Part shown: one piece after another, positions 9,827 through 62,854 of the stretch | Layout: each line of letters opens with the position of its first letter | Position numbering within the stretch: the stretch's first letter is position 1 | NCBI GenBank assembly: GCA_021851895.1 | Contig: JAJZQJ010000005.1 | Coordinates: 14,572-78,571, forward strand | Source: a bacterium | Lineage (GTDB): Bacteria; Patescibacteriota; Minisyncoccia; Phycocordibacterales; UBA6899 | Length of the DNA: 64,000 nt | Direction: 5' to 3' | Notes under the pieces: model-generated | Seen by the model: the letters and a program-made list of their open reading frames with translations, nothing else | Database searches by the model: none | What the model was told of the DNA's origin: nothing | Program-made: the position numbers and the translations under genes

Positions 9827-11495
9827 AACGACGACGTAAGTCGATCACTGCGCCTGGTGCTTGCACGCGAACCACTCTACGTAATTCAAGCGGTGCAGTC
9901 TGTACTGGTCGAACACTATTCGCGCGCACCTCGTTTCGATCAGCACGCGGTGGAGGTAAGGCCAGTGTCGGAGCCCCTCCTTGAGCACCTCTCATTTGAT
10001 AGGAAAGATATGACTTTCCTATGCGCCAGCCACCAATGACAAGCAATAGTATGAACAGCGGAAGCAAAGCGATCGAGAGTGCAGGATTTCTGCCGAGGAA
10101 GCCGAGTATGGATGGAGAAACCTCGACATCGACATGGACAGGAACGTCAGACGAAGCGCCATTCGACTTCGACTGAGTAACCGACAACATATAGTTTCCG
10201 GGAAGCACACTCTCGGTGAGTGTATATGTACCCTTTCCATCACTATCAAGCTGTACGTCATCGACGTGATGTACGGAACCCCCCTCAAAAACGACCTTCG
10301 CAGTCGCACCAGGGATTCCTTTGACATGCGCGACGATAGGACTTGCCTCCCTGAACTTCTCCTGATCAAGCGTAACGATAGGCTGATCAAGCGAAAGTAC
10401 TTCATATTTCACCTTCGACTCACTCCTATTCCCTGCCTTATCGACTGCCGCGATCGTCAGATCATGAGCTCCAAAAACTGTAGAGCGGAAATGATATATA
10501 CCCGAACCATCATCAGTCCAATTCGTTGGTGCCCCTTTGTCGATAGTGAACTCATAATGGTCGAGACCAGAAATCGTATCCGTTGCACTCACACTGAATG
10601 CAATATTTGGATCGTGCTTATCTATGCGTTCAACTTCAGTTGTCGTCCCCAGTAACGGAGCGCTATGATCGATCGCAATTCGAAAGTGTGCGGAGTCCTT
10701 TAATGCACCGCCCGCAGGCGTAACATGAAAGAACCATTCCCCCTCATCAAGATCAGTGATCGTGCGCGTCGTTGTACCTGACGGGATACTCTTATAACCA
10801 AGATCATCCCTATTATGGGAAAGTCCAACAAGTACGTCCTGCACTGCATGTGGGAGCGTCCAAGACATCGTCACTTCACGTAGCGGATACCACAATGATT
10901 CGTCGGGAATCTCCTTTGCGGTGACAGTTAATGCAACCGAGTCTGAAGCCCCGAGCACTTCACCAGAATTCGGTGTTGTCGTCGCATCAGTTGTCGTCGC
11001 ATCAGAATTATTTTCAAATCCTTCTTTTGGAGACACGTCAAAGCTTGCTTGGATGATGCGACCAAGTGTATTACCTCCCGTACCATCCGCCGCTACCGTC
11101 GACGCACCAGAAGTAAATCGTAACTCAGGCTTACCTGGTCGTAGTGCATGTACTTGCAACGTGAGCAGTTCGAGTGTTGATGGAGCACCGCTCTTGATCA
11201 TTCCTGAATAACGCAATACGCCATCCGCAATGCTCGGCGTCACCACCCAAGAGACATCTTGTGAAGTAGAGACGATATCAATGCTTACCAACTTTGGATC
11301 GAATTCAAGCGTCGCCTCGACCGCTGCCAACTTTTCTGGAGATTCAACCATGACACGTACAGGAATCGTCTCATCGACAGCATAACTCCCTGAGGCAGGA
11401 GAGAGCGATAAGGTACTTGATGCGAAAGCAAAGGACGGAAAAAGCGCTATTGAAAAAAGCGCTGCGAGGATCGTTTTCCGTGCACGTGTGTACAT
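9825..11495 (-). CDS. Cell-surface protein with C-terminal TM anchor and Arg-rich tail
   Basis: Signal peptide, Ig-like and Thr-rich beta-rich body, then TM LLPLFILLLVIGGW and a basic cytoplasmic tail. Confidence 0.55.
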   Translation of the reverse strand: MYTRARKTILAALFSIALFPSFAFASSTLSLSPASGSYAVDETIPVRVMVESPEKLAAVEATLEFDPKLVSIDIVSTSQDVSWVVTPSIADGVLRYSGMIKSGAPSTLELLTLQVHALRPGKPELRFTSGASTVAADGTGGNTLGRIIQASFDVSPKEGFENNSDATTTDATTTPNSGEVLGASDSVALTVTAKEIPDESLWYPLREVTMSWTLPHAVQDVLVGLSHNRDDLGYKSIPSGTTTRTITDLDEGEWFFHVTPAGGALKDSAHFRIAIDHSAPLLGTTTEVERIDKHDPNIAFSVSATDTISGLDHYEFTIDKGAPTNWTDDGSGIYHFRSTVFGAHDLTIAAVDKAGNRSESKVKYEVLSLDQPIVTLDQEKFREASPIVAHVKGIPGATAKVVFEGGSVHHVDDVQLDSDGKGTYTLTESVLPGNYMLSVTQSKSNGASSDVPVHVDVEVSPSILGFLGRNPALSIALLPLFILLLVIGGWRIGKSYLSYQMRGAQGGAPTLALPPPRADRNEVRANSVRPVQTAPLELRRVVRVQAPGAVIDLRRR

Positions 11496-15008: not shown

Positions 15009-16905
15009 ACCATGTTGCTGACGAGTTAATGACAGCATCAATTGCATTTTGACCCTTATAGTCACCCGAAACGGTAATCGTTGCCGGAACAGTGATACCC
15101 CAATAGAGTGTTCCTGTATTTGGCGTCGAGGTCGACGTAGACTTCAAGATGTTAAAATCAAAGAATTTAGGAGTCGTCGATGCGAGAGAGACGCCGGATG
15201 CATACGCGATAGTACTCGTCGCATAGTGCTCTGCACTTGCAGGAATCGTATCGGTCGGACTTCCTGAACACGAACCAGGAGTCGTACACATATCTGTTCC
15301 AGAGATGTTTGCATCGAGTGACGCATTTCCCGTAGCTTCGATTGCGAGCAATGAGCTTGTTGCCCCCTGATCGTCAACACCGATCGTCGTATTTCCTTGT
15401 CCCGGCTCCCAGCCACCGAAGCTGAACGTATTTGCAGTGAGACCAAGCGCGGAGAGGATATTCATCTCAGAGCCGGTAAGCTTAAGATTCGACGAGGTGG
15501 CACCGGCATGATCCATCGGTGTGATATTCACCTTCATCTGCTCGCTCGCCCAAGGTGATCCGAAATCAGTCGGGTCTGTCGTATACCACAGTGGGAACGT
15601 ACAAGACCAACCGACGGTCATATCCGATGGCCCAGTACAAGAATCGCTCATGTACGTAGGGTCTGGTGCGCAAACAACATTCCAACTTGCGGTCTTATCT
15701 CCGCTCGAGTAGCAGCTGTTGTAGTTTTGCTGGCCGTCCGAGAGTCCATTACATGAAGCATCTGGGTAGCCACTGCGATAGAGCGTGATGATCGTGCTTG
15801 ATGCTTGTGGTGTCCCCGCTGCAGTTGTACACGAATTATAATCAGAAACCTGGAATGAAAGCTTGAAATTTGGAGTCTCACCCTTCTCTACAACCAATTT
15901 CATCGACGTGCTTGCATATTGGTCAACGAGAGAAATTGTTCCAGGAACGATCGTTGGAGCAACATTGTTTACAGTAAACGTCGATGCAGTACCCTGCTGA
16001 GGTCCGATAGCTTGCGCACCACGACTGTCAACGATATACGGATATGTCGTTGTCGTTCCGTCGAGTGTTGGGATCGGGAATGTCCACGATGCTACAGGAT
16101 TCGTCTGTACTGCAGAAGTTGAGCTCGCCCATGTACCGCCAGATCCACAATTAGTTCCGGTGAAATCTGCGGCCTTACAGAGAAAGAGTGTTGCGAGATC
16201 AGGACCATTGATCGTATCTTGATGAGTGACCTCAGTAGAAGATGCGGTGAAAGTGATCAACTGACCTGGATCCTTTGGACCATCATTGGTTAGCGAACTG
16301 AAGGTATGCGGGTGATTGATGACAAGCGGTGATGCTTCAGGTGCACCTGGAGTACCCTGCACGAGAGGATCTGTCGTCTTCGAGCACTTTGGAAGACCAA
16401 CGACATCGTCACAGACGAATGCATACCACTGTATGGTCTCGTTCACGTTGTCGATAATAGGACTCGAAGTTGCATAAACGATCGCCGTTGCTGGGTAGAT
16501 CGGTGCTGGAGGAGTACCACTCGTTACCGCAAGCTGGTTTGAAATACCACCAGCACAGGATGGCTGTGCAGAAGTCGTAGCGGTTGGCGCTCCACCAGTC
16601 TTACAGATAAGGAGATAGATGTTATTACTCGAGCTATCGTATGCGTCTGCTGACCACACGACTACCGAACCATTTACGGTTGGCGTCGTTGTCGCTGAGA
16701 CGACGACCTCACGAGGTGCGGCGTTGAATCGCGGCGGCGTGTTGAGCACCTTCACCGTTGAAGTCGCAGCTCCGGAGCCTCCTGCAAGTGCTTGAGTACT
16801 AAAAACACCGATCGTCGACACGCCGATGAGAGTGACCAAAGCGAAAATTCCGGTCGCAACCGTAATTTTTCCTGCGGTCTTCCAATAAGTGAATTTGCCG
16901 TCCAT
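15007..16905 (-). CDS. Large Thr/Ser/Gly-rich secreted protein (633 aa)
   Basis: Start set at MDGKFTYWKTAGKITVATGIFALVTLIGV (signal or anchor). The longer ORF-track start runs through the conserved upstream motif and a TATAAT hexamer. Confidence 0.55.
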   Translation of the reverse strand: MDGKFTYWKTAGKITVATGIFALVTLIGVSTIGVFSTQALAGGSGAATSTVKVLNTPPRFNAAPREVVVSATTTPTVNGSVVVWSADAYDSSSNNIYLLICKTGGAPTATTSAQPSCAGGISNQLAVTSGTPPAPIYPATAIVYATSSPIIDNVNETIQWYAFVCDDVVGLPKCSKTTDPLVQGTPGAPEASPLVINHPHTFSSLTNDGPKDPGQLITFTASSTEVTHQDTINGPDLATLFLCKAADFTGTNCGSGGTWASSTSAVQTNPVASWTFPIPTLDGTTTTYPYIVDSRGAQAIGPQQGTASTFTVNNVAPTIVPGTISLVDQYASTSMKLVVEKGETPNFKLSFQVSDYNSCTTAAGTPQASSTIITLYRSGYPDASCNGLSDGQQNYNSCYSSGDKTASWNVVCAPDPTYMSDSCTGPSDMTVGWSCTFPLWYTTDPTDFGSPWASEQMKVNITPMDHAGATSSNLKLTGSEMNILSALGLTANTFSFGGWEPGQGNTTIGVDDQGATSSLLAIEATGNASLDANISGTDMCTTPGSCSGSPTDTIPASAEHYATSTIAYASGVSLASTTPKFFDFNILKSTSTSTPNTGTLYWGITVPATITVSGDYKGQNAIDAVINSSATW

Positions 16906-30522: not shown

Positions 30523-30545
30523 CGCTGCACCATAACACAAGATGA

Positions 30546-30580
30546 GGGAATAGGGAATAGGGTATAGGGAATAGGGAAAT
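30546..30580. repeat. Heptamer tandem array (GGGAATA)x5, family A
   Basis: gggaata gggaata gggtata gggaata gggaaat. Exact inverted partner at 30679-30713. Confidence 0.85.
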
Positions 30581-30678: not shown

Positions 30679-30713
30679 CCCTATACCCTATTCCCTATTC
30701 CCTATTCCCTGGT
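30679..30713. repeat. Heptamer tandem array (CCCTATT)x5, complement of family A
   Basis: ccctata ccctatt ccctatt ccctatt ccctggt. Ends at a TATTAT hexamer 6 nt before the hisS ATG. Confidence 0.85.
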
Positions 30714-47279: not shown

Positions 47280-49472
47280 TTAATTAACTACAGGGGTCGA
47301 AGTTGCGTCAGACTCAGTGCGTATGACGGGCGGAGTTGCGACGACGATCTCAGTGTTCGATACCGGCGTCTTTGGTTGGTTACGTGTATTGTCAACGAGT
47401 CTACGCGCAAGTGCAGTGAGGTCGAAGGTTTGTGCACCATCGACGCTACTGCCCACCATACGCATTTGCCCATTGGCATCCTCTTCATTCCACACGAGTG
47501 CAACTCTTGGAGATTCGCTCTTCACTCCTGGTTTCGAAACGCGATGAGCGACACCTGTTGTGATGTCGTATGCGAAGACCTGCCACACACCATCTTCGAT
47601 CGCCTGCCACGTGATCGTATCACCAGAGACATTCGGGAACATATCCGGTGCGTTATTCGCAGTAATGCGCTTCACCAACCAGTCACCGTTCACTCCTACT
47701 GCACGATGATCAGCAGACAACGCATCATCAGGTATTTTCTCTGGAGATGGAGCAGCAGTGAATATTTCCCAATTTCCATCTACCCATGCTTGCCATGCGA
47801 TTCTTCCGCCGTACACTTTGGGATTGAAATTATTATCTCCGCTAGTGAGATACTTCACCTTTGGTACTCCAACATCATTCACGTGCGCATATGCGATTTG
47901 CCACTTACCATTCTGCATTGATTGCCATACGAGCGTATCGCCAGATGGATCAAGAACAGGGAAAACGTTGTCATCCGTTCCATGCGTAAGCTGTATGGTG
48001 CTTGCGCCACGCACAAGGAAAATCTGTTTATTTCCCGTCGACGGATCCGGCTGGACAACCACGGAAATCGAGCGCTCGTTCGCGATCACTGGCGAACCGA
48101 ACGACTGTGCATCAGGGATACAGTAATAACCCGTTCCATCGAGATTCTTACAACCCCGATAGACCTCTTGCTCCACTTCCCTACGCACCTCTTGTTTCAC
48201 CTCATCACGTACTTCATTACGTAACTCACCGCGCATCTCGTTGCGCAACCGCGCACGAATCGCATCGATGTTACCGATGACCTCATCAGGTGCGACATCG
48301 AGGATCGGCGTCTCCCCGTCGGCTGTTGTTGATGCAACAGTCTCTGTTTGCATGGTCTCATCAACGACGATCGTCGTAGATGCAGTACTTGACGATGCGG
48401 TGTCGATGATCACAGGAGGTGGCGTCTCGATAGCGCCCTCTGACGATGAGGTCGAAGAATCTGATGATGAGGTATCCGACAGTGCCGCACCGCCACCCGA
48501 TGAGACAGGTTGAGTAACCGGCGCTGGATCAGCGACTTCCTGGGTTGTACCCGAAGCGTCACTCGAAGAAGCGGGGGTCTCTGTGGTTGGCGTATCCGAA
48601 GCGAGCTTGTCTGTTGTACTTCCAGAATCTACGACCGGAAGCGAATCGGTTGCCGAGCTCGCTACTGGTGCAGGTGTCGGATCGGATTGCGTAATCGCTG
48701 CAACGTCGTTGCCACCACCCTGCGCTACCGACTGCGGAGCACCAGCATTTGCGTCTGCAGTCGGTGCAGTCTGGACATCTTGCGATGTTGGAGAATCTGC
48801 AGCATTAACGGTTTGAGTATCTTGCGCTGCCGCTGCATCAGCAGAAGATGGCGCAGCTGATTGACTTACGTCAGAGGACACAGAAGGAGCCGCAACGGCA
48901 GCAACATTCGAACTTACGTCAGATTCTGGTGCAGAAGCTGGCTGAGTGTTGTCTGCAACGGAAGTGCTCGGTGCATCACTGGATCCAACGATCGCTGCGA
49001 CATCACTTGCGACACGATCAGCAAGTGGCGCCTCATCTGCGTATGCAGGAGCGAGCGGAGCAATGAGCATTGCAGGTATGAGTAACCATGCGAAGAAACG
49101 CGCAAGAGGAGATGCGGGTTTGACTGCTGCAACACGAACATCACTACCCGAGAGAGCTGCGTCGATAACTCTTCGCAGAGCGCCTTCATCTTTTCGCGCG
49201 TGCGCGTATGCGTGCGCGCTCGCGCGCGCCTGCGCGTGCGCACGCGCGCGCGTAACAGAAAAACTTCGAACGGTCAAATCAGCGGATTTTGCATCACGCG
49301 AAAGGTTTGTCCCCCCACCTGTTACTGCAGTTACAGACGCTTTTCTTTGGGAAAGCAGAATAGCCCCACCCGTCTTCGGGGAGGAGGTGTGCTGCACAAG
49401 CCTTGTTGGTGGCGGTTTTATACCACTACGCGGCAAGTGAACAATACTGTTTTCCGGTTCGTATTTCATCAT
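47280..49472 (-). CDS. Membrane-anchored protein with a low-complexity stalk and C-terminal TolB/WD40-like beta-propeller
   Basis: Repeated DxxPxxSGDxxxWQ blades at the C-terminus; one TM after a ~130-aa cytoplasmic N-terminus. An alternating-CG tract at 49196-49260 lies inside the coding sequence. Confidence 0.55.
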   Translation of the reverse strand: MMKYEPENSIVHLPRSGIKPPPTRLVQHTSSPKTGGAILLSQRKASVTAVTGGGTNLSRDAKSADLTVRSFSVTRARAHAQARASAHAYAHARKDEGALRRVIDAALSGSDVRVAAVKPASPLARFFAWLLIPAMLIAPLAPAYADEAPLADRVASDVAAIVGSSDAPSTSVADNTQPASAPESDVSSNVAAVAAPSVSSDVSQSAAPSSADAAAAQDTQTVNAADSPTSQDVQTAPTADANAGAPQSVAQGGGNDVAAITQSDPTPAPVASSATDSLPVVDSGSTTDKLASDTPTTETPASSSDASGTTQEVADPAPVTQPVSSGGGAALSDTSSSDSSTSSSEGAIETPPPVIIDTASSSTASTTIVVDETMQTETVASTTADGETPILDVAPDEVIGNIDAIRARLRNEMRGELRNEVRDEVKQEVRREVEQEVYRGCKNLDGTGYYCIPDAQSFGSPVIANERSISVVVQPDPSTGNKQIFLVRGASTIQLTHGTDDNVFPVLDPSGDTLVWQSMQNGKWQIAYAHVNDVGVPKVKYLTSGDNNFNPKVYGGRIAWQAWVDGNWEIFTAAPSPEKIPDDALSADHRAVGVNGDWLVKRITANNAPDMFPNVSGDTITWQAIEDGVWQVFAYDITTGVAHRVSKPGVKSESPRVALVWNEEDANGQMRMVGSSVDGAQTFDLTALARRLVDNTRNQPKTPVSNTEIVVATPPVIRTESDATSTPVVN

Positions 49473-52525: not shown

Positions 52526-54487
52526 CTACGAACGCACATCAAATCGAGCATCTGCTGCGCGAAGCGCTGCGACCACCTTCTCAGCTACGGTATTCGCCTC
52601 ATCATCAGAAAGTGTTCTCTCATTACTTTGCAGCGTCATACGAAATGCAAAGCTCTTCTTCCCCTCCTCAGGTTTCTCGAAAACATCAAAGAGTGCAAGA
52701 TCGATGACAAGCGGCCCCATAACAGAGCGAATGATCTCATCGATAGCTCCGACACGAATCTCCATCGGAACCCAGAGGGCAACATCGCGCACTACCTTTG
52801 GATACTTGCTTGGAGCCACATAGCGATACTGCTCCTCTTTGGAGACAAGCTGCACTAGTACATCAAAGTCGATCTCAAAACCCTGCACGTGGAGCACACC
52901 GATCAAAGTTTTGCCTACGTAGATCTCTGCTGCAACATCACCGCCGCATTCCTTATACGTGAACCCCTTGAGGCCACATGCTCTTGCGAGCGCGTCGAGT
53001 ACACCTTTAAGTTGCACGAAATCATTCTTCACTTCTGCTTGCTTGCGCTTTTGGAATCCGATAGCGGCCGCGAATGAACGATTCTCGGAAACCTTTCCAT
53101 CGTTCTTGCCAAAGACCGATCCAAATTCAAAGATGCGTACTACATCCTTGTATTTTAAATTCTCTGCCAACGATTCACGAAGTCCATGCGATAGATTATT
53201 GCGGAGAGCCTTGCGATCCGAGGCCATCGGATTGCGGAGCTCCACTTCCCCGAGATTGTTGAACGAATAAGTATACACCTCAGAAAATCCTGAAGCGAGC
53301 ATGACCTCGCGAGCTTTATCACGAAGTGTCCAAAAAAGATTCTGCGTAGGAGCAATAAGTGGCTCCAAAGGAAGTGTACCAACAAGTCCTTCAAGACCGA
53401 CAAGACGACAGACTTCCTCGGCGAGATCTTCCTTGATTGTGATATCCAAACGCTCATGCGGAACAACGATCGTCCAAACACTGTCCTCCCCCTTGCCCTT
53501 CACCTTCGAAGAGAATCCGAGACGCTTCCAGATACGAGATACCTCTGCAGCATCATAATGTGCACCGACGATACGTTCGATCTGTGCGAGTGAAACCGAG
53601 ACCGTACGCTGCTTTGGAAGCGCAGCCCCTTTTATCACAGGAATACCAGGAATGACTTCTTTACCTCCTGCGATGTCGATGATGATACCTGCAACCATAG
53701 CGAGCGCCTCATCGACGTAATATGGCGTCATGCCCTGCTCAAAGCGCTTCGCTGCATCGGTGCGGAGGTTGTAGCGCTGCGCAGCTTTACGCACCGTCGC
53801 ACCATCGAAGTTTGCAGACTCAAGGACTATAGTCTTTGTATCTTTATTGACCTCTGCTATCGTTCCCCCTTTCACACCTGCGACCGCAAGCGGTGACTGC
53901 TTATCTGCAATGACAAGCGTGCCAACATCGAGAGCTATCTGCTTCCCGTCAAGCGTTGTGATCTGCTCGCCCTCCTTTGATGCGCGGACGACGATCTTCT
54001 TTCCGGAGATCTTCGCATAGTCAAATGCGTGCAGCGGTTGCCCCATCATGTAAAGCACATAATTGGTCGCGTCAACGACATTATTGATCGAGCGCGCCCC
54101 AAGTGTCTCCAAAGCATCCTTTAACCATTTTGGTGAAGGACCTACAGAGATATTATCGAGAACGAGTGCAGCATAGCGTACAGCTCGTTTGTCTGCAATT
54201 TGTACATCGATCTTATGAGCTTTTGCGCTACCCTTTTGGAGCTTTACGGCAGGAGTCTTCTTAAGCGGGATATTTAGCACAGCGGAAACCTCCTTCGCCA
54301 CACCCCGATGTGAAAGACAATCATGTGCACGGTTGGGAAGCACTTTCACATCAATGAGCGTATCGCCCTTTTTCGCTTCGATCCCTTCAATTTCAAAACT
54401 ATGCGCCGTAAGCTTCGCCGCAATGATGTCCGCCTTTGGAAGCGGCTTATCGAAATATGTTTGGAGTAATTTTCGAGAGATAAGCAT
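52526..54487 (-). CDS. pheT: Phenylalanyl-tRNA synthetase beta subunit (short form)
   Basis: B3/B4, FDX-ACB and C-terminal anticodon-binding-like domains. 653 aa, shorter than the canonical ~800 aa. Confidence 0.85.
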   Translation of the reverse strand: MLISRKLLQTYFDKPLPKADIIAAKLTAHSFEIEGIEAKKGDTLIDVKVLPNRAHDCLSHRGVAKEVSAVLNIPLKKTPAVKLQKGSAKAHKIDVQIADKRAVRYAALVLDNISVGPSPKWLKDALETLGARSINNVVDATNYVLYMMGQPLHAFDYAKISGKKIVVRASKEGEQITTLDGKQIALDVGTLVIADKQSPLAVAGVKGGTIAEVNKDTKTIVLESANFDGATVRKAAQRYNLRTDAAKRFEQGMTPYYVDEALAMVAGIIIDIAGGKEVIPGIPVIKGAALPKQRTVSVSLAQIERIVGAHYDAAEVSRIWKRLGFSSKVKGKGEDSVWTIVVPHERLDITIKEDLAEEVCRLVGLEGLVGTLPLEPLIAPTQNLFWTLRDKAREVMLASGFSEVYTYSFNNLGEVELRNPMASDRKALRNNLSHGLRESLAENLKYKDVVRIFEFGSVFGKNDGKVSENRSFAAAIGFQKRKQAEVKNDFVQLKGVLDALARACGLKGFTYKECGGDVAAEIYVGKTLIGVLHVQGFEIDFDVLVQLVSKEEQYRYVAPSKYPKVVRDVALWVPMEIRVGAIDEIIRSVMGPLVIDLALFDVFEKPEEGKKSFAFRMTLQSNERTLSDDEANTVAEKVVAALRAADARFDVRS

Positions 54488-54489
54488 AA

Positions 54490-54517
54490 GTAAGAAGTAA
54501 GAAGTAAGAAGTAAGAA
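54490..54517. repeat. Heptamer tandem array (GTAAGAA)x4, family B, abutting the pheT ATG
   Basis: cat-aa-gtaagaa gtaagaa gtaagaa gtaagaa ggttgaa. Inverted partner at 54926-54957. Confidence 0.85.
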
Positions 54518-54537
54518 GGTTGAAATACCTATCTTTC

Positions 54538-54888
54538 TTACTCATTCGGATAAGTTCCACAAAGCGAATAAAGCATTTTGGCGAGCTCGCCAAGAAGGGA
54601 TTCTAGTTCTGAAATATTCTCAACATAGCCTAGGCGATGGGCAATCTCGAGCTGAGTTTCAACTTCAGCCACCGACCCAAGCGCAATCGAATAAAATCTC
54701 TGTCTATCTTTTTGAGTATTTCGCCTATAGCCTTCTGCAATATTTGATGGCGCTGAAATCGCAGCTCTCTGAATTTGAGAACTCAAAGCATATTGCTCAT
54801 TTTTTGGAAATGTACTTGTCAGTTTATACACAAGCACAACCATATTCATGGACTTCTGCCACACGATCAAATCTTTATAACCATTCAT
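54538..54888 (-). CDS. Four-helix-bundle protein of the 23S rRNA intervening-sequence protein family (PF05635/TIGR02436-like)
   Basis: DLIVWQKSMNMVVLVYKLTSTFPKNEQYALSSQIQRAAISAPSNIAEGYRR...FYSIALGSVAEVETQLEIAHRLGY matches the hallmark pattern of this family. Flanked by inverted heptamer arrays. Confidence 0.75.
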   Translation of the reverse strand: MNGYKDLIVWQKSMNMVVLVYKLTSTFPKNEQYALSSQIQRAAISAPSNIAEGYRRNTQKDRQRFYSIALGSVAEVETQLEIAHRLGYVENISELESLLGELAKMLYSLCGTYPNE

Positions 54889-54902: not shown

Positions 54903-54957
54903 GAGTGAAGTAGTTGTGAGAATTTCCTTCCCACTTCTCACTTCTTACTTCTCACTA
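54903..54957. repeat. Heptamer array (ACTTCTC/ACTTCTT)x3-4 plus inward GTGAGAA units, complement of family B, beginning at the pheS stop codon
   Basis: gtgaagtagttgtgagaa-tttccttccc-acttctc acttctt acttctc act. On the minus transcript this reads TAG-TGAGAAG-TAAGAAG-TGAGAAG-TGGGAAG. Confidence 0.8.
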
Positions 54958-55773
54958 TATTGTATCGAACTGATCCACGAGGCGAAGGTCGCCATTGTAA
55001 AGTGTGCGAATGTCGGGAATTCCCCACTTCAACATGACGAAACGATCGACACCGCCACCGAAAGCAAAGCCCTGGTACTTATTCGGATCAATACCGCCAG
55101 CGCGAAGCACGTCAGGATGCACCATACCCGCACCCATCACTTCGATCCACTTTTCCACCTTTCCCTTATCATCTGTCCAGCCGATGTCGATTTCAACTGA
55201 TGGCTCGGTGAATGGGAAATATGATGGGCGAAAACGCACCATCATCGGTCGTCCGAAGAGGCGTGCAAAAAAGAGTTCGAGCATACCTTTCAAGTTCGCA
55301 AGCGAAACATCTTTACCGATCATGAGACCTTCGAACTGATGGAATTGCGCCTCGTGGGTGGCATCTGTTGCTTCATAGCGAAACACCTTACCCGGTGCAA
55401 TGATGCGGATCGGCGCACCCTGCTTCTCCATATGACGTATCTGGACCGGTGATGTATGCGTACGCAAAAGAAGACGCTCGAGTCCGCGAGTATCTTTCAA
55501 CCAGAACGTATCCCACATATCACGTGCGGGGTGATCTTTCGGAATATTGAGCGCATCAAAGTTGTAGTGTTCGGTCTCGATCTCTGGGCCATCTGCGATA
55601 CTGAAGCCCATAGAGCCGAATATGCTGTTGATGTCGCGCATCATGATCGAGACAGGATGCATATGCCCGCGCTCTCCCCCCTTTCCAGGGAGCGTTGCGT
55701 CAAGGCCAATTTGCTCTCGTGAATACATAGTGAATTCATCATAGCACACGGAGAAACATGCGTAAAATGGCAT
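54955..55773 (-). CDS. pheS: Phenylalanyl-tRNA synthetase alpha subunit (short form, 272 aa)
   Basis: Class II core (FRPSYFPFTEPS, GAGMVHP) is present. Start set at MPFYACF (55773) because the upstream extension overlaps a conserved plus-strand paralog gene. The N-terminal coiled-coil extension is absent. Confidence 0.75.
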   Translation of the reverse strand: MPFYACFSVCYDEFTMYSREQIGLDATLPGKGGERGHMHPVSIMMRDINSIFGSMGFSIADGPEIETEHYNFDALNIPKDHPARDMWDTFWLKDTRGLERLLLRTHTSPVQIRHMEKQGAPIRIIAPGKVFRYEATDATHEAQFHQFEGLMIGKDVSLANLKGMLELFFARLFGRPMMVRFRPSYFPFTEPSVEIDIGWTDDKGKVEKWIEVMGAGMVHPDVLRAGGIDPNKYQGFAFGGGVDRFVMLKWGIPDIRTLYNGDLRLVDQFDTI

Positions 55774-55848
55774 TTTTTCAACGTTTCCTTGATGTGCAAG
55801 ACTTACCATGCTAGCCTGACTGTAGAGAAAGTTCACCAGAAAGGACCC

Positions 55849-56403
55849 ATGATCAGCACCCCTTCCCCGCGCCGCATTGTCAAAGTCTCCCTCGACTCGA
55901 TCGTCAGTTTCGACAACGAGGCAATACTCGCTGCGAAGAATAGCGACGAAGCGTGTCGCATCGCGGAACACCTCCTCGCTCGCCTCGAAAAGATACGAGC
56001 ACCAAGACGTTACTTCGAGCTCGCACTCAAGAACAGCCTGATGAAGAGACCGGAAATGCAGAAGCGCCACTACTTCATCATGCATGACCGAAGCGTACTC
56101 AAGGTCGCAGTCCGGTTCGGGAGGCACGCCACCACGAAAACGCGCGAGAAGCTGATCACTATCGCAGGCTACTTCGGGATGTATCGTCTTCTTAAAGAGG
56201 TCATCTCTGATTTGCGTAATACCGTGATGACGAAGCAGGAATTCCTTGCAATGACCGTCCATTTCAGCGTGTCGAGCGAAACGATGGATGAGCACGCGCT
56301 CGGAATGATTCGCGATGCTGAAATCGCACACGGTGAAGCATTCGCTAAAACGATCGAGGACGCTCTCGCTACTCGATACCAAGAATGGAACGAACTTCCA
56401 TGA
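55849..56403 (+). CDS. Hypothetical helical protein, paralog 1 of a tandem pair
   Basis: RBS agaaagga. 184 aa, alignable with the next gene (GRHATTKTREKLITIAGYFGMYRLLKEV versus GKHANMEIKERIVLVARRFRDYKLLKLTV). Confidence 0.45.
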   Translation: MISTPSPRRIVKVSLDSIVSFDNEAILAAKNSDEACRIAEHLLARLEKIRAPRRYFELALKNSLMKRPEMQKRHYFIMHDRSVLKVAVRFGRHATTKTREKLITIAGYFGMYRLLKEVISDLRNTVMTKQEFLAMTVHFSVSSETMDEHALGMIRDAEIAHGEAFAKTIEDALATRYQEWNELP

Positions 56404-56413
56404 CATGTCCTTG

Positions 56414-56436
56414 CCGCACGATCGTGCGGTTTTTTC
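56414..56436 (+). terminator. Rho-independent terminator
   Basis: ccgcacgatcgtgcgg followed by tttttt. A TTGCAA-17-TATGGT promoter follows. Confidence 0.55.
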
Positions 56437-56509
56437 TTGCAAAGTTTTATGTCTCATGTTATGGTATCCCTCCCGAGATAGTTCTTTAACCACCACAAGG
56501 AGCCCATAC

Positions 56510-57079
56510 ATGGGAAGCTCTCTTCGCGCCAATAGAAGCGGCCTTATGCCGCTACGCACACACCTCGACTTCGACATGAAGTCGATTCTCGAGATGAGTC
56601 CGAGGATCGGACTCGCCCTCGCTCAGCACACCATGCGAAAGCTCGAGATCATGGAGGCGCCCGACTGGGCCTTCGAACGATTCGCAGAGCACTGCCTCCT
56701 TGAGCTCCCGGAGTTCCAATCCGGCTGGATCATGCAGGCACAATCCAAGGACTTCTTCATGCTTCTCCTTTCGTGTGGAAAACATGCGAATATGGAGATC
56801 AAGGAGAGGATCGTCCTCGTCGCGCGCAGGTTCCGAGACTACAAGCTGCTCAAGCTGACCGTGGGAACACTGCTCGTAAGGCCGCTCTCCCCTTTCGAAT
56901 TCGAAGAGGCGGCTGAGCTTCTCCATATCACGAGCCGTGATTTCAGTGAGACCGCGAGCCTCATCACGATCGATGCGTTCAAGACACATGGCCTTGAGCT
57001 CCGATCGAAGATCAAGGAGATCCTCAAGAAAAAGGCCGACGTCGAACTCCTCGAGGAAACCGCCATTGCGGCGGTGTGA
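56510..57079 (+). CDS. Hypothetical helical protein, paralog 2
   Basis: Perfect RBS aaggag 7 nt upstream, own promoter and terminator. Confidence 0.5.
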   Translation: MGSSLRANRSGLMPLRTHLDFDMKSILEMSPRIGLALAQHTMRKLEIMEAPDWAFERFAEHCLLELPEFQSGWIMQAQSKDFFMLLLSCGKHANMEIKERIVLVARRFRDYKLLKLTVGTLLVRPLSPFEFEEAAELLHITSRDFSETASLITIDAFKTHGLELRSKIKEILKKKADVELLEETAIAAV

Positions 57080-61214: not shown

Positions 61215-61460
61215 TCAAGCTCTATTCGCCCTTCTTCTCTCGCTGATGATGGCATAGGCGTAAAGATCCTCTACCTTTTGACGCGCCCAAGGGGTCCTCC
61301 GAAGAAAAGTAAGGCTTGATTTGACGCTCGGATCATTCGCGAAACAGTTGATACGAATACGTTTTGCGAGCTCTTCCCACCCATAGCGTGCCACCAAAAA
61401 CTCCAGGACATCCTGGAGTGTGACACCTTGAAATATGTCGTTTTGGTTTTTTCTGCTCAT
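61215..61460 (-). CDS. DUF2132 (VF530-like) small protein
   Basis: GVTLQDVLEFLVARYGWEELAKRIRINCFANDPSVKSSLTFLRRTPWARQKVEDLY resembles the VF530/DUF2132 family. Confidence 0.45.
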   Translation of the reverse strand: MSRKNQNDIFQGVTLQDVLEFLVARYGWEELAKRIRINCFANDPSVKSSLTFLRRTPWARQKVEDLYAYAIISERRRANRA

Positions 61461-61463
61461 AGA

Positions 61464-62450
61464 TCAATCCCCATCATCATCAGCACTCCCAAGGTTTCCC
61501 GAAAGAGCACGATCGCGAACGGTTTCGGCGATACGGCCGAAATCGCCCGCAAGAATGGACTCGATTCCATGCCATGATTCCTTAATGCGATGATCAGTGA
61601 CACGATCCTGGAGAACATTATACGTACGGATCTTTTCCGAACGATCTCCAGTACCTACCGCGGAGCGAATCTCTGCATTCTTCGCAGCATTCTTCTCCTC
61701 TTCGAGCTGCTCCACCTTCGCAGCGAGAATCGTGAATGCCTTCTCGCGATTCTTGAGCTGTGAGCGCTCCACTGCACAGTGGACATGTATACCCGTCGGC
61801 TTATGGAAGAGGTGCACTGCAGTCTCAACCTTATTCACATTCTGACCTCCTGCACCGCCCGCACGTGCGAACTGCATCTCGACGTCAGCGGGATTGATGA
61901 CGACCTTCGCCTTTTTGCGAATAGGCAAGACGAGCACAGAAGCCGTTGAAGTATGCACCCTACCCTGCTTCTCTGTTGCTGGTATGCGCTGCACACGATG
62001 CACACCCGTCTCGTAACGAAGGAGATCGAATGCATCACTTCCCGTGATCTCAAAGCTTGCCTCCTTATATCCGCCCATCTCTGCCCTACTCTCATCGACG
62101 ACCTCAAAACGCCATCCGCGCTGTTTTGCAAATGCTTGATACATGAGTGCGAGATCCTCCGCGAAGATCGCAGCCTCTTCGCCGCCAACGCCTGCACGAA
62201 CCTCAAGCACAAGCTCTCGAGGCTTTTCTTCTTCTGCTTCTGCGTCCTTTTGTATCTTTACAAGCCTCTCATAGAGCTCAGACATCGCAGCATCGAGCGC
62301 ACTCGCATCCTCTCGGGCCATATCAGCCATCTCGGGATCAGAAAGCAACGCATCGAGTTCGGTGCGCTCCTTCTGCATGCGCTCAAAGTCCTCTGCGAGA
62401 TACTTCGTGCGGTAATCGTCTTTGAATGGGGTGAGGTCGTAGTCTTGCAT
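61464..62450 (-). CDS. prfA: Peptide chain release factor 1
   Basis: GGQ motif ([12 protein letters not shown]) and RF1-type PAT tripeptide. Start at MQDYDL; the longer ORF only reads through the heptamer array. Confidence 0.85.
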
Positions 62451-62451
62451 A

Positions 62452-62493
62452 GTGAGAAGTGAGAAGTGAGAAGTGAGAAGTGAGAAGTAAGCC
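62452..62493. repeat. Heptamer tandem array (GTGAGAA)x5 + GTAAGCC, family B, abutting the prfA ATG
   Basis: On the minus transcript this reads (TTCTCAC)x5 followed by T and the ATG. Confidence 0.85.
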
Positions 62494-62562
62494 CACACCG
62501 CACTTATCACTTTATTCTGTCACAATTGAGTGAAAAATAAAAAGGAACAGAAAATAAGTTCC

Positions 62563-62621
62563 GGGTATTGGGTATTTCCCTATTCCCTATTCCCTATTCC
62601 CTATTCCCTTCTTATTACTTC
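62563..62621. repeat. Composite heptamer array (GGGTATT)x2 + (TATTCCC)x5 + TTCTTAT-TACTTCT, covering the rpmE stop codon
   Basis: On the minus transcript: AAG-AAG-TAA-TAAGAAG-(GGAATAG)x4-GGAAATACCCAATACCC. A-family and B-family units are adjacent. Confidence 0.8.
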
Positions 62622-62854
62622 TTTGCTGTCTTCTTTGCTGCAGTCTTTGCTGCGGTAGCGGCAACACGTGCCTTGAACTTCTCCATGCGGCCTGCGGTGT
62701 CCATCACCTTCTCCTGGCCGGTGAAAAGTGGATGGCACTGCGAACAGATCTCAATGTTGAGCTCCTGTGAAGGAGAACCAACGGTGAACTCTGCACCACA
62801 AGCACAAGTTACCTTTGCCTGCTCGAAGTACTTTGGGTGGATATCCGTCTTCAT
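62615..62854 (-). CDS. rpmE: 50S ribosomal protein L31 (Zn-ribbon type)
   Basis: MKTDIHPKY...CACGAEF...CSQCHPLFTG. Confidence 0.8.
   Translation of the reverse strand: MKTDIHPKYFEQAKVTCACGAEFTVGSPSQELNIEICSQCHPLFTGQEKVMDTAGRMEKFKARVAATAAKTAAKKTAKK

Follow-up and report, generated by a model that had tools for sequence, protein, structure and literature searches.

Why should the gap between two genes of the translation apparatus carry two different arrays of seven-nucleotide repeats, one just after the upstream stop codon and the other just before the downstream start codon? The question is raised by the junction of rpmE (ribosomal protein L31) and prfA (release factor 1, RF1) in a 64,000-nt stretch of contig JAJZQJ010000005.1, from a bacterium of the candidate phyla radiation (CPR); we refer to the whole stretch as “the window”. 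The arrays are local copies of a known, widespread and functionally unexplained class of bacterial intergenic tandem heptanucleotide repeats. Within the clade, array position and periodicity are conserved while the repeat unit is replaced. As for what the arrays do, we see roughly even chances that, jointly, the upstream (A) array is the 5′ arm of a hairpin that would terminate or stabilize the 3′ end of rpmE mRNA, the downstream (B) array is a C/U-rich prfA leader, and both are renewed by slippage.

The junction contains the following features, all on the minus strand:

61464-62450, minus strand: prfA coding sequence; matches Pfam PCRF and RF-1 (E 2e-49 and 1e-37)
62451-62488, minus strand: B array, (TTCTCAC)x5.4 on the operon strand; from Tandem Repeats Finder and the sequence
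62464-62512, minus strand: HP2, a predicted hairpin in which a degenerate purine arm, AGUGAUAAGUGCGGUGUGGG, pairs with the first ~3 units of the B array
62533-62543, minus strand: U-rich tract UUUUUAUUUUU (U5-A-U5), read from the sequence
62539-62612, minus strand: HP1, a long, imperfect predicted hairpin whose 5′ arm is the A array
62576-62610, minus strand: A array, (GGGAATA)x4.9 on the operon strand; from Tandem Repeats Finder and the sequence
62615-62854, minus strand: rpmE coding sequence, an open reading frame (ORF) matching Pfam PF01197 Ribosomal_L31 (E 1.7e-26)

Read on the minus strand, the rpmE stop codon (TAA, 62617-62615) is followed by a second in-frame TAA (62614-62612) and GAAG, then by four full GGAATAG units and GGAAATACCCAATACCC. 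Tandem Repeats Finder places the A array at 62576-62609 (period 7, 4.9 copies, 100% match); it begins 5 nt past the double stop and has five GGG tracts at 7-nt spacing. Between GGAAATACCCAATACCC and the B array, the strand reads GGAAC-TTATTTTCT-GTTCC-TTTTTATTTTT-CACTCAATTGTGACAGAATAAAGTGATAAGTGCGGTGTGGGCTTAC. The B array (period 7, 5.4 copies, 100% match) is C/U-rich and free of G. It ends at 62452, and a single T separates it from the prfA ATG (62450-62448), the start with which an identical prfA protein has already been deposited. There is no Shine-Dalgarno sequence for prfA, nor any purine run in the 20 nt 5′ of its ATG. The two arrays, their repeat units and the start without a Shine-Dalgarno sequence were all correctly described in an earlier, sequence-only reading of this DNA; the gap that it gave as 70 nt is ~75 nt when measured from the A-related sequence to the B array.

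Little else was found at the junction. Its 83-nt spacer contains no ORF and hence no gene of the PF05635 family (see below). A consensus scan of the junction detected no sigma-70 promoter for prfA, which may be transcribed by read-through or from an unrecognized promoter. With Rfam 15 at gathering score, tRNA was the sole match in the window; at E ≤ 1, the junction yielded just sub-threshold matches to plant microRNA-precursor hairpins (E 0.1-0.6). Clustered regularly interspaced short palindromic repeats (CRISPR), miniature inverted-repeat transposable elements and transposon ends were ruled out, there being no spacers, target-site duplication or transposase. By its RF1 homologues the window belongs to a Paceibacteria-like lineage of Patescibacteria, the closest named ones being from Candidatus Lloydbacteria and Paceibacterota.

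The A array is predicted to pair locally. The tip of HP1 has the form GGG.AU.GGG/CCC.AU.CCC (62563-62587), the 3′ arm is the C/U-rich sequence CUUAUUUUCUGUUCCUUUUU, and the predicted stem comprises ~20 bp plus the tip and is rich in G·U pairs. The first U5 of UUUUUAUUUUU closes this stem and the second lies beyond it, an arrangement like that of a terminator. In predicted folds, HP1 is far more stable than expected on the sense strand (z −4.6) and unexceptional on the antisense strand (z +0.1). Both strands were folded for six genomes, and in each the sense strand is the more stable: minimum free energies (MFEs; sense/antisense, kcal/mol) are −32.7/−14.8 for the window and, for five relatives described below, −34.7/−16.2 (L003), −34.8/−21.2 (L206), −43.4/−32.8 (L208), −37.0/−24.7 (L002) and −41.3/−17.5 (L006); the hairpin of a further relative, L005, was folded in full for its sense strand alone. 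The asymmetry arises because a G·U pair in one RNA corresponds to an A·C mismatch in its complement. It extends to the whole junction, with an MFE of −60.6 kcal/mol (z −5.8) on the operon strand and −44.3 kcal/mol (z −2.7) on the opposite strand.

We read the same junction in nine genomes, i.e., the window and eight relatives (prfA identity 67-85%), with the following layouts:

L002: an ATAGGGT-type array, a C-rich arm and T7 after rpmE; the prfA ATG lies 3 nt past the T7
L003 and L206: degenerate GGGAATA/GGGGTTA/GGGTTTA arrays, ACACCCA(A/C)TACC, a C/T-rich arm and a T-run after rpmE; L003 additionally has CTCATGA-CTAATGA-CTTATGA before prfA
L005: (TCATAAG)x5, a complementary arm and T6 after rpmE; CTAATGA units before prfA
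L006 and L208: (AGTCATG)x3-4, a complementary arm and a T-run after rpmE; CTCATGA/CTGATGA units before prfA
L207: a long hairpin flanked by A6/T5, with no array, after rpmE; ATGACT units before prfA
L209, the outgroup (67% prfA identity): a plain GC hairpin and T6 in a 49-nt spacer; no arrays

A hairpin and T-run lie 3′ of the rpmE stop codon in all nine genomes, the outgroup included. In seven of the nine, a heptamer array forms the 5′ arm, built either from G3N4 units (window, L002, L003 and L206) or from TCATRAG units (L005, L006 and L208). The consensus fold of the four G3N4-type orthologues has 26 pairs, with many exchanges between GC and GU and three compensatory changes. Substitutions in the L003 and L206 arrays are distributed unevenly: none fall in the GGG tracts (0/30), as against 14/40 in the 4-nt spacers (p 1.5e-4). 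The invariant GGG would fit a role in pairing as the 3′ arm drifts, since G alone among the bases can pair with C as well as U. One of the two arrays is missing in L002, L206 and L207, and more distant Paceibacteria (50-60% identity) have no arrays at the junction. The only same-species contig, L001 from the European Nucleotide Archive (identical prfA protein), is identical over 6.5 kb and therefore gives no copy-number information on strain variation. A spacer elsewhere in L006, 3′ of pheT (16564-16700), holds a small hairpin, (ATGATTT)x3 and then a GGGTAT-type array, so that intergenic regions of the clade can stack several families.

The B array is predicted to fold in part. In HP2, the upstream units are paired and the last ~13 nt of the array remain unpaired before the prfA AUG; predicted stability is similar on the two strands (sense −21.2 kcal/mol, z −3.4; antisense −19.6 kcal/mol, z −3.5). 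A conserved prfA leader hairpin was ruled out, since the relatives are essentially unstructured here (z −0.3 to −1.8). The sequence-only reading held that the A and B arrays, as members of different families, cannot pair with each other, and concluded that they must either bind proteins or pair in trans. A duplex of −24 kcal/mol is in fact predicted between them, although local partners are preferred in the minimum-energy fold. Nor is the choice forced: with a degenerate complementary arm next to each array, neither trans pairing nor protein binding is needed. The use of different families at one junction is likewise not a conserved feature, given that L005, L006 and L208 carry complementary families in cis.

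The junction is one of three such loci in the window. Period-7 arrays of at least three copies number six, as against 0.0 in surrogates (40 first-order Markov sequences), and there are no perfect arrays with periods of 4-6 or 8-12. The six arrays form pairs at the EngB-like GTPase gene/hisS, pheS/pheT and rpmE/prfA; those at the first locus (A family) and the second (B family) lie where the sequence-only reading placed them:

30545-30578, plus strand: A-family array (AGGGAAT)x4.9, 22 nt upstream of the start of the EngB-like GTPase gene and antisense to it
30679-30711, plus strand: A-family array (CCCTATT)x4.6, 13 nt 5′ of the hisS ATG
54486-54519, minus strand: B-family pyrimidine array (CTTCTTA)x4.4, adjoining the pheT ATG; 3′ arm of a 30-bp stem
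54538-54888, minus strand: PF05635 four-helix-bundle (“23S rRNA IVS protein”) gene; Pfam E 1.3e-38
54926-54956, minus strand: B-family purine array (GTGAGAA-like, x4), overlapping the pheS stop codon; 5′ arm of the same stem

Each locus, read on either strand, runs from a purine-rich array through a spacer to a pyrimidine-rich array. All six arrays are intergenic, one of them overlapping a stop codon. Both post-stop arrays are purine-rich on the sense strand, and all four pre-start arrays are pyrimidine-rich. The three A arrays each have 4.6-4.9 units.

At the divergent hisS and EngB-like genes, the 30545 and 30679 arrays are exact reverse complements across 24 nt, a variant unit (GGGTATA/TATACCC) among them, which suggests either that one was recently copied in inverted orientation or that pairing is under strong selection. 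Each gene has a TGnTATTAT-type −10 element 6 nt before its ATG (for hisS, TGGTATTAT), with an array just upstream. The placement of these elements suggests that both mRNAs are leaderless, and the arrays are probably promoter DNA rather than RNA; being upstream of leaderless-type −10 elements, they are perhaps untranscribed. Many other genes in L001 (e.g., at 1315, 2223, 6876 and 11364) and L003 have a TATAAT-like hexamer 6-8 nt before the ATG and no Shine-Dalgarno sequence, suggesting that leaderless mRNAs are widespread in the lineage; other genes of L001 and L003 have clear GGAGG sites. Periodic sequence of another kind, an alternating GC-rich, GCGCGT-like and Z-DNA-like tract with periods of 6, 10, 22 and 24, lies within a long minus-strand ORF of the window (49195-49252).

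A wider sample came from Joint Genome Institute metagenome contigs scanned for (GGGAATA)x3, with matches in at least 120 unrelated contigs of 32-72% GC; the counts that follow are those among the matches listed, which comprise 781 kb and 236 heptamer arrays of many families. Directly 3′ of ORFs of at least 100 codons, the purine-rich reading outnumbers the pyrimidine-rich reading by 79 to 16. Pre-start arrays show no orientation bias (19 vs 15). Where two arrays of opposite skew lie <150 nt apart, the order is purine-then-pyrimidine in 17 pairs and the reverse in none; the families often differ within a pair, so that a mixed-family junction is ordinary for the class. For 51 of 70 post-stop arrays, the sense RNA is the more stable of the two strands. 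Put in terms of a purine- or G-rich strand after stop codons and its complement before start codons, the orientation rule of the sequence-only reading holds: orientation is non-random in both the window and the metagenome sample, and position is kept in relatives; the post-stop half of the rule extends to the wider sample and the pre-start half does not.

Heptamer arrays also occur at unrelated prfA loci inspected as controls: an (AATTGTC)n array directly follows prfA in Oscillospiraceae, and Bacteroidota loci have (GTTGACA)x7, (AACTGTM)x9 and (TGGTAAT)x7, the −35 hexamer TTGACA being present in several of these (L028-L032, ~10940-11050; L083, 1214-1263 and 20147-20209; L065, 1963-2017).

Repeats of this kind have been met before. 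The cyanobacterial short tandemly repeated repetitive (STRR) sequences, reportedly described by Mazel in 1990, resemble the present arrays in that several families share a genome, occupy intergenic positions and have no accepted function; strict STRR units are CCCCAGT, TTGGTCA and CAACAGT, so both lineage and units differ here. In the survey by Mori et al. (2018; PMC6344855), no intergenic repeat was more abundant among prokaryotes than the tandem heptamer, for whose function the authors had “no clear clue”. The closest match is with the intergenic heptamers of Xanthomonas and Nostoc (GGGNATC type: GGGAATC and GGGGA(C/T)T) described by Rehm et al. (2015; PMC4692102). In that study, arrays of four units were preferred, the repeats formed G-quadruplexes in vitro, and the G-rich strand was the coding strand within 50 bp after stop codons and the non-coding strand within 50 bp before start codons. 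Relatives retained the flanking genes while repeat length and sequence varied, inverted pairs capable of forming stem-loops were mentioned, and function was left unexplained. The orientation rule is thus real but already published, and all three A arrays in the window follow it. Like those repeats, the A array has a 7-nt G3N4 unit, ~4-5 copies and an intergenic position. The present arrays differ in unit (GGGAATA) and in their CPR host; the A array is an arm of a conserved, sense-specific predicted hairpin with a U-run; a second, G-tract-free family (GTGAGAA/TTCTCAC) obeys the same rule; and one pair lies between divergent genes, a position under-represented in the Rehm study.

The B array recalls a different precedent. 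MacGregor (2015; PMC4679880) described TAACTGA direct repeats in Beggiatoaceae, cyanobacteria and Bacteroidetes that adjoin starts without Shine-Dalgarno sequences, including those of translation-apparatus genes, and that differ between strains by indels in 7-nt steps; a post-transcriptional role was proposed. The B array, 1 nt from the prfA ATG, and the array adjoining the pheT ATG are similarly placed, with different units (TTCTCAC and GGGAATA being those of the rpmE-prfA junction); unlike at rpmE-prfA, no paired post-stop array or hairpin was described for the TAACTGA repeats. The TAACTGA repeats are also stop-rich in the pre-start orientation, the opposite of what the sequence-only reading proposed, namely that a stop-rich array follows the upstream gene and a stop-free array precedes the downstream one. 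Stop content does not determine orientation in our data either: in relatives, prfA is immediately preceded by CTAATGA and CTCATGA units, which contain TAA, TGA and ATG, and GGGAACA arrays, which lack stop triplets, share the post-stop orientation, as do the published GGGAATC repeats (PMC4692102). With stop-free units after stop codons and stop-rich units before prfA, we rejected stop codons in all three frames as a selected property. Autoregulation by RF1 through UAG codons in the A array was also rejected, since rpmE ends in UAA-UAA and the units of relatives carry UGA or UAA.

How might the arrays work? In this clade they lie at intergenic edges and are replaced rapidly, probably through slippage in 7-nt steps. 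At the present junction, we propose, they act in cis within the rpmE-prfA transcript. Upstream, (GGGAAUA)5 would form the 5′ arm of a G·U-rich hairpin with a U-run, serving as an rpmE terminator or 3′-end stabilizer that probably passes only part of transcription on into prfA. Downstream, (UUCUCAC)5 would provide the prfA leader, with the upstream units folded onto the degenerate purine arm and the last ~13 nt single-stranded before the ATG, a configuration that may aid initiation without a Shine-Dalgarno sequence. Intrinsic terminators and the intercistronic hairpins of repetitive extragenic palindromes (REPs) and bacterial interspersed mosaic elements place a hairpin after a stop codon, in terminators with a U-run. 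By analogy, HP1, which occupies the site of the outgroup's plain terminator, could protect upstream mRNA and attenuate downstream expression. Unlike those elements, its stem is built of tandem repeats and is G·U-rich, with no REP consensus and no gene for a REP-associated tyrosine transposase (RAYT).

Several observations weigh against this proposal. HP2 lacks strand asymmetry and is not conserved in relatives. The invariant GGG tracts are explained equally well by a G-quadruplex. A simple consensus scan called no canonical terminator at the junction, owing to a long, interrupted stem with few GC pairs, a loop of more than 8 nt and a U-run that lies partly in the 3′ arm. The array pair at hisS/engB lies between divergent genes, where no terminator would be expected. 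Lastly, just 20 of the 70 post-stop metagenome arrays listed have a significant downstream partner (z < −2), and T-runs are few; we therefore reject the idea that post-stop arrays generally have a hairpin partner, and use as a hairpin arm is not general to the class.

Four alternatives deserve consideration, in decreasing order of weight: neutral slippage, intervening elements cut by RNase III, a G-quadruplex, and protein binding or trans pairing. In the first, the arrays are functionless by-products of slippage, and purifying selection on neighboring genes filters their position and orientation only, e.g., by excluding G-rich, Shine-Dalgarno-like or structured sequence just 5′ of start codons. 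We regard this as unlikely. Replacement of the unit among close relatives at an orthologous junction, the lack of one array in three of them and the absence of pre-start bias in the wide sample all agree with it, as does the standing of heptamers as the commonest long simple repeats in many prokaryotes (PMC6344855; for heptanucleotide predominance and the slippage hypothesis, Mrazek 2007 as cited in PMC4679880). Copy number also differs among assemblies: in two contigs encoding the same PF05635 protein, L213 (2381-2460) and L215 (1838-1900), the 3′ arrays differ by two 7-nt units, which could be a copy-number polymorphism or an assembly limit (L215 has a scaffold gap, an N run, inside its 5′ array at 1290-1389). 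What neutral slippage leaves unexplained is that period 7 alone is expanded, that GGG tracts stay invariant as the spacers drift, that a sense-specific hairpin survives unit turnover, that orientation is so asymmetric among the matches listed (79:16 and 17:0) and that the GGGAATA unit recurs there in contigs of 32-72% GC.

The second alternative draws on the intervening sequences (IVSs) in the 23S rRNA of the Leptospira/Coxiella type, where a PF05635 ORF occupies the loop of a stem recognized by RNase III. Known examples serve as substrates of this enzyme and include forms with and without the ORF. By analogy, the arrays would be the ends of hairpin cassettes at gene boundaries that are cut by RNase III, uncoupling the fates of rpmE and prfA mRNA, and the hairpins between rpmE and prfA would represent copies that lack an ORF or have decayed. 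At pheS-pheT the likeness is close: inverted arms surround the PF05635 gene, and the sense RNA is predicted to form a long double-stranded stem suited to RNase III (30 bp, with four G·U pairs and no mismatch). The corresponding spacer in L006 (14590-14610) is merely TAG-TT-ATG and lacks the PF05635 gene; set against it, the window's array, PF05635 gene and array read as a precise insertion between the pheS stop codon and the pheT ATG. The same insertion is present in L210 (820-1290), from the same sample as L005. The pheS ORF of the window (54955-56577) spans 540 aa, as against 352 aa in L006, with the class-II core domain at residues 292-537; it has either a long N-terminal extension or an internal true start.

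The association of PF05635 with heptamers is not confined to this locus. Across a set of very different hosts and repeat units (window, L103, L109, L130, L184, L204 and L210-L223), inverted heptamer arrays bracket PF05635 genes in 10/10 non-viral and 6/7 viral-contig cases, the remaining viral case being unclear. Five of the non-viral genes came from contigs selected for arrays, and all lie inside purine-then-pyrimidine pairs; three homologues (L211/212, L213-215 and L216) were picked irrespective of repeats. In these three and L210, the inverted period-7 arms are 31-61 nt long, 78-89% complementary and 350-400 nt apart. We found no paper that links PF05635 to heptamer repeats. In L213, prfB lies 3′ of the PF05635 cassette (2470-2545), with a programmed +1 frameshift site (GGAGG..CTTTGAC); the array ends 10 nt before its ATG, making prfB a second release-factor gene with a start-proximal array.

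That arrays adjoin coding-sequence boundaries, as the ends of such elements should, also speaks for intervening elements, but the rpmE-prfA arrays belong to mRNA and form two separate, shorter, interrupted hairpins, not one stem. None of the nine genomes has a PF05635 gene at this junction, comparison of the window with L006 at pheS-pheT yielded no target-site duplication or other mobility signature, and the arms in L213 have A·C instead of G·U mismatches on the sense strand. For the rpmE-prfA junction, we thus consider intervening elements a somewhat more doubtful account than neutral slippage. There is, in addition, a small chance that purine/pyrimidine array pairs in general are the stems of a widespread, unrecognized class of IVS-like cassettes excised from mRNA by RNase III. 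By analogy with rRNA IVSs, full copies would carry a PF05635 gene and insert between operon genes (pheS/pheT, purE/purM, upstream of prfB), and ORF-less or decayed derivatives, e.g., the two rpmE-prfA hairpins, would fill intergenic regions.

A third possibility, that the A array acts as a G-quadruplex in the rpmE 3′ untranslated RNA or in non-template DNA, with the B array unrelated, strikes us as improbable. Its five G3 tracts with 4-nt loops match the canonical motif, the unit number of all three A arrays satisfies the published preference for at least four units in the same orientation (PMC4692102), and loops vary while G tracts are kept (L002 has loops of 3-5 nt). Alone, the array folds as a predicted G-quadruplex of −10.4 kcal/mol; the predicted full hairpin (−32.7 kcal/mol) wins even with G-quadruplex folding enabled. 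Moreover, the arrays of L005, L006 and L208 (TCATAAG or AGTCATG) have no G tracts yet share the site and the hairpin architecture, and the B family, incapable of forming a G-quadruplex, obeys the same orientation rule.

Least probable are the two options of the sequence-only reading, multivalent protein-binding sites and trans pairing between translation-gene transcripts. Candidate binders on RNA would be S1, Csp, CsrA or a HutP/TRAP-like oligomer, with a DNA-binding factor as another option. UAG triplets are spaced 7 nt apart in the A array, resembling the HutP motif UAG-N4-UAG, and the probable promoter location of the hisS/engB arrays would suit a DNA-binding factor. Freed RNAs are predicted to form strong duplexes (A-A −59 kcal/mol, B-B −49 kcal/mol), and translation genes flank all three array loci; such genes make up a large share of any CPR genome, so this association is weak. 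S1, Csp and CsrA are candidates from the literature (PMC4679880), but the repeat unit differs among orthologous sites, where a sequence-specific binder would require it to be kept, and no candidate binder was identified in the window. Trans pairing faces dominant cis partners in the predicted folds, a pheS-side B array held within a 30-bp cis stem and hisS/engB arrays that are probably untranscribed. A gene for VF530 (PF09905), a small DNA-binding protein, lies directly 3′ of prfA in the window (61215-61460) and, among the relatives, only in the closest ones (L002, L003 and L206-L208). VF530 was dropped as a repeat binder, as its gene was not found in the 21 kb around prfA of the array-bearing L006; nor was it found in more distant Paceibacteria.

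The rpmE-prfA junction is a compact test case, in that at one site in a CPR clade the repeat unit has been replaced several times while the hairpin and U-run were preserved, and the outgroup, with its ordinary terminator, offers a clean comparison. The locus hints at a testable role for heptamer arrays as register-tolerant arms of RNA hairpins at gene ends. The bracketing of PF05635 genes by arrays connects two unexplained features, and a genome-wide check is feasible by computation alone. Should the arrays prove to be the stems of IVS-like cassettes, this would explain part of the global excess of period-7 repeats in prokaryotes, and PF05635 proteins would gain a repeat-linked role.

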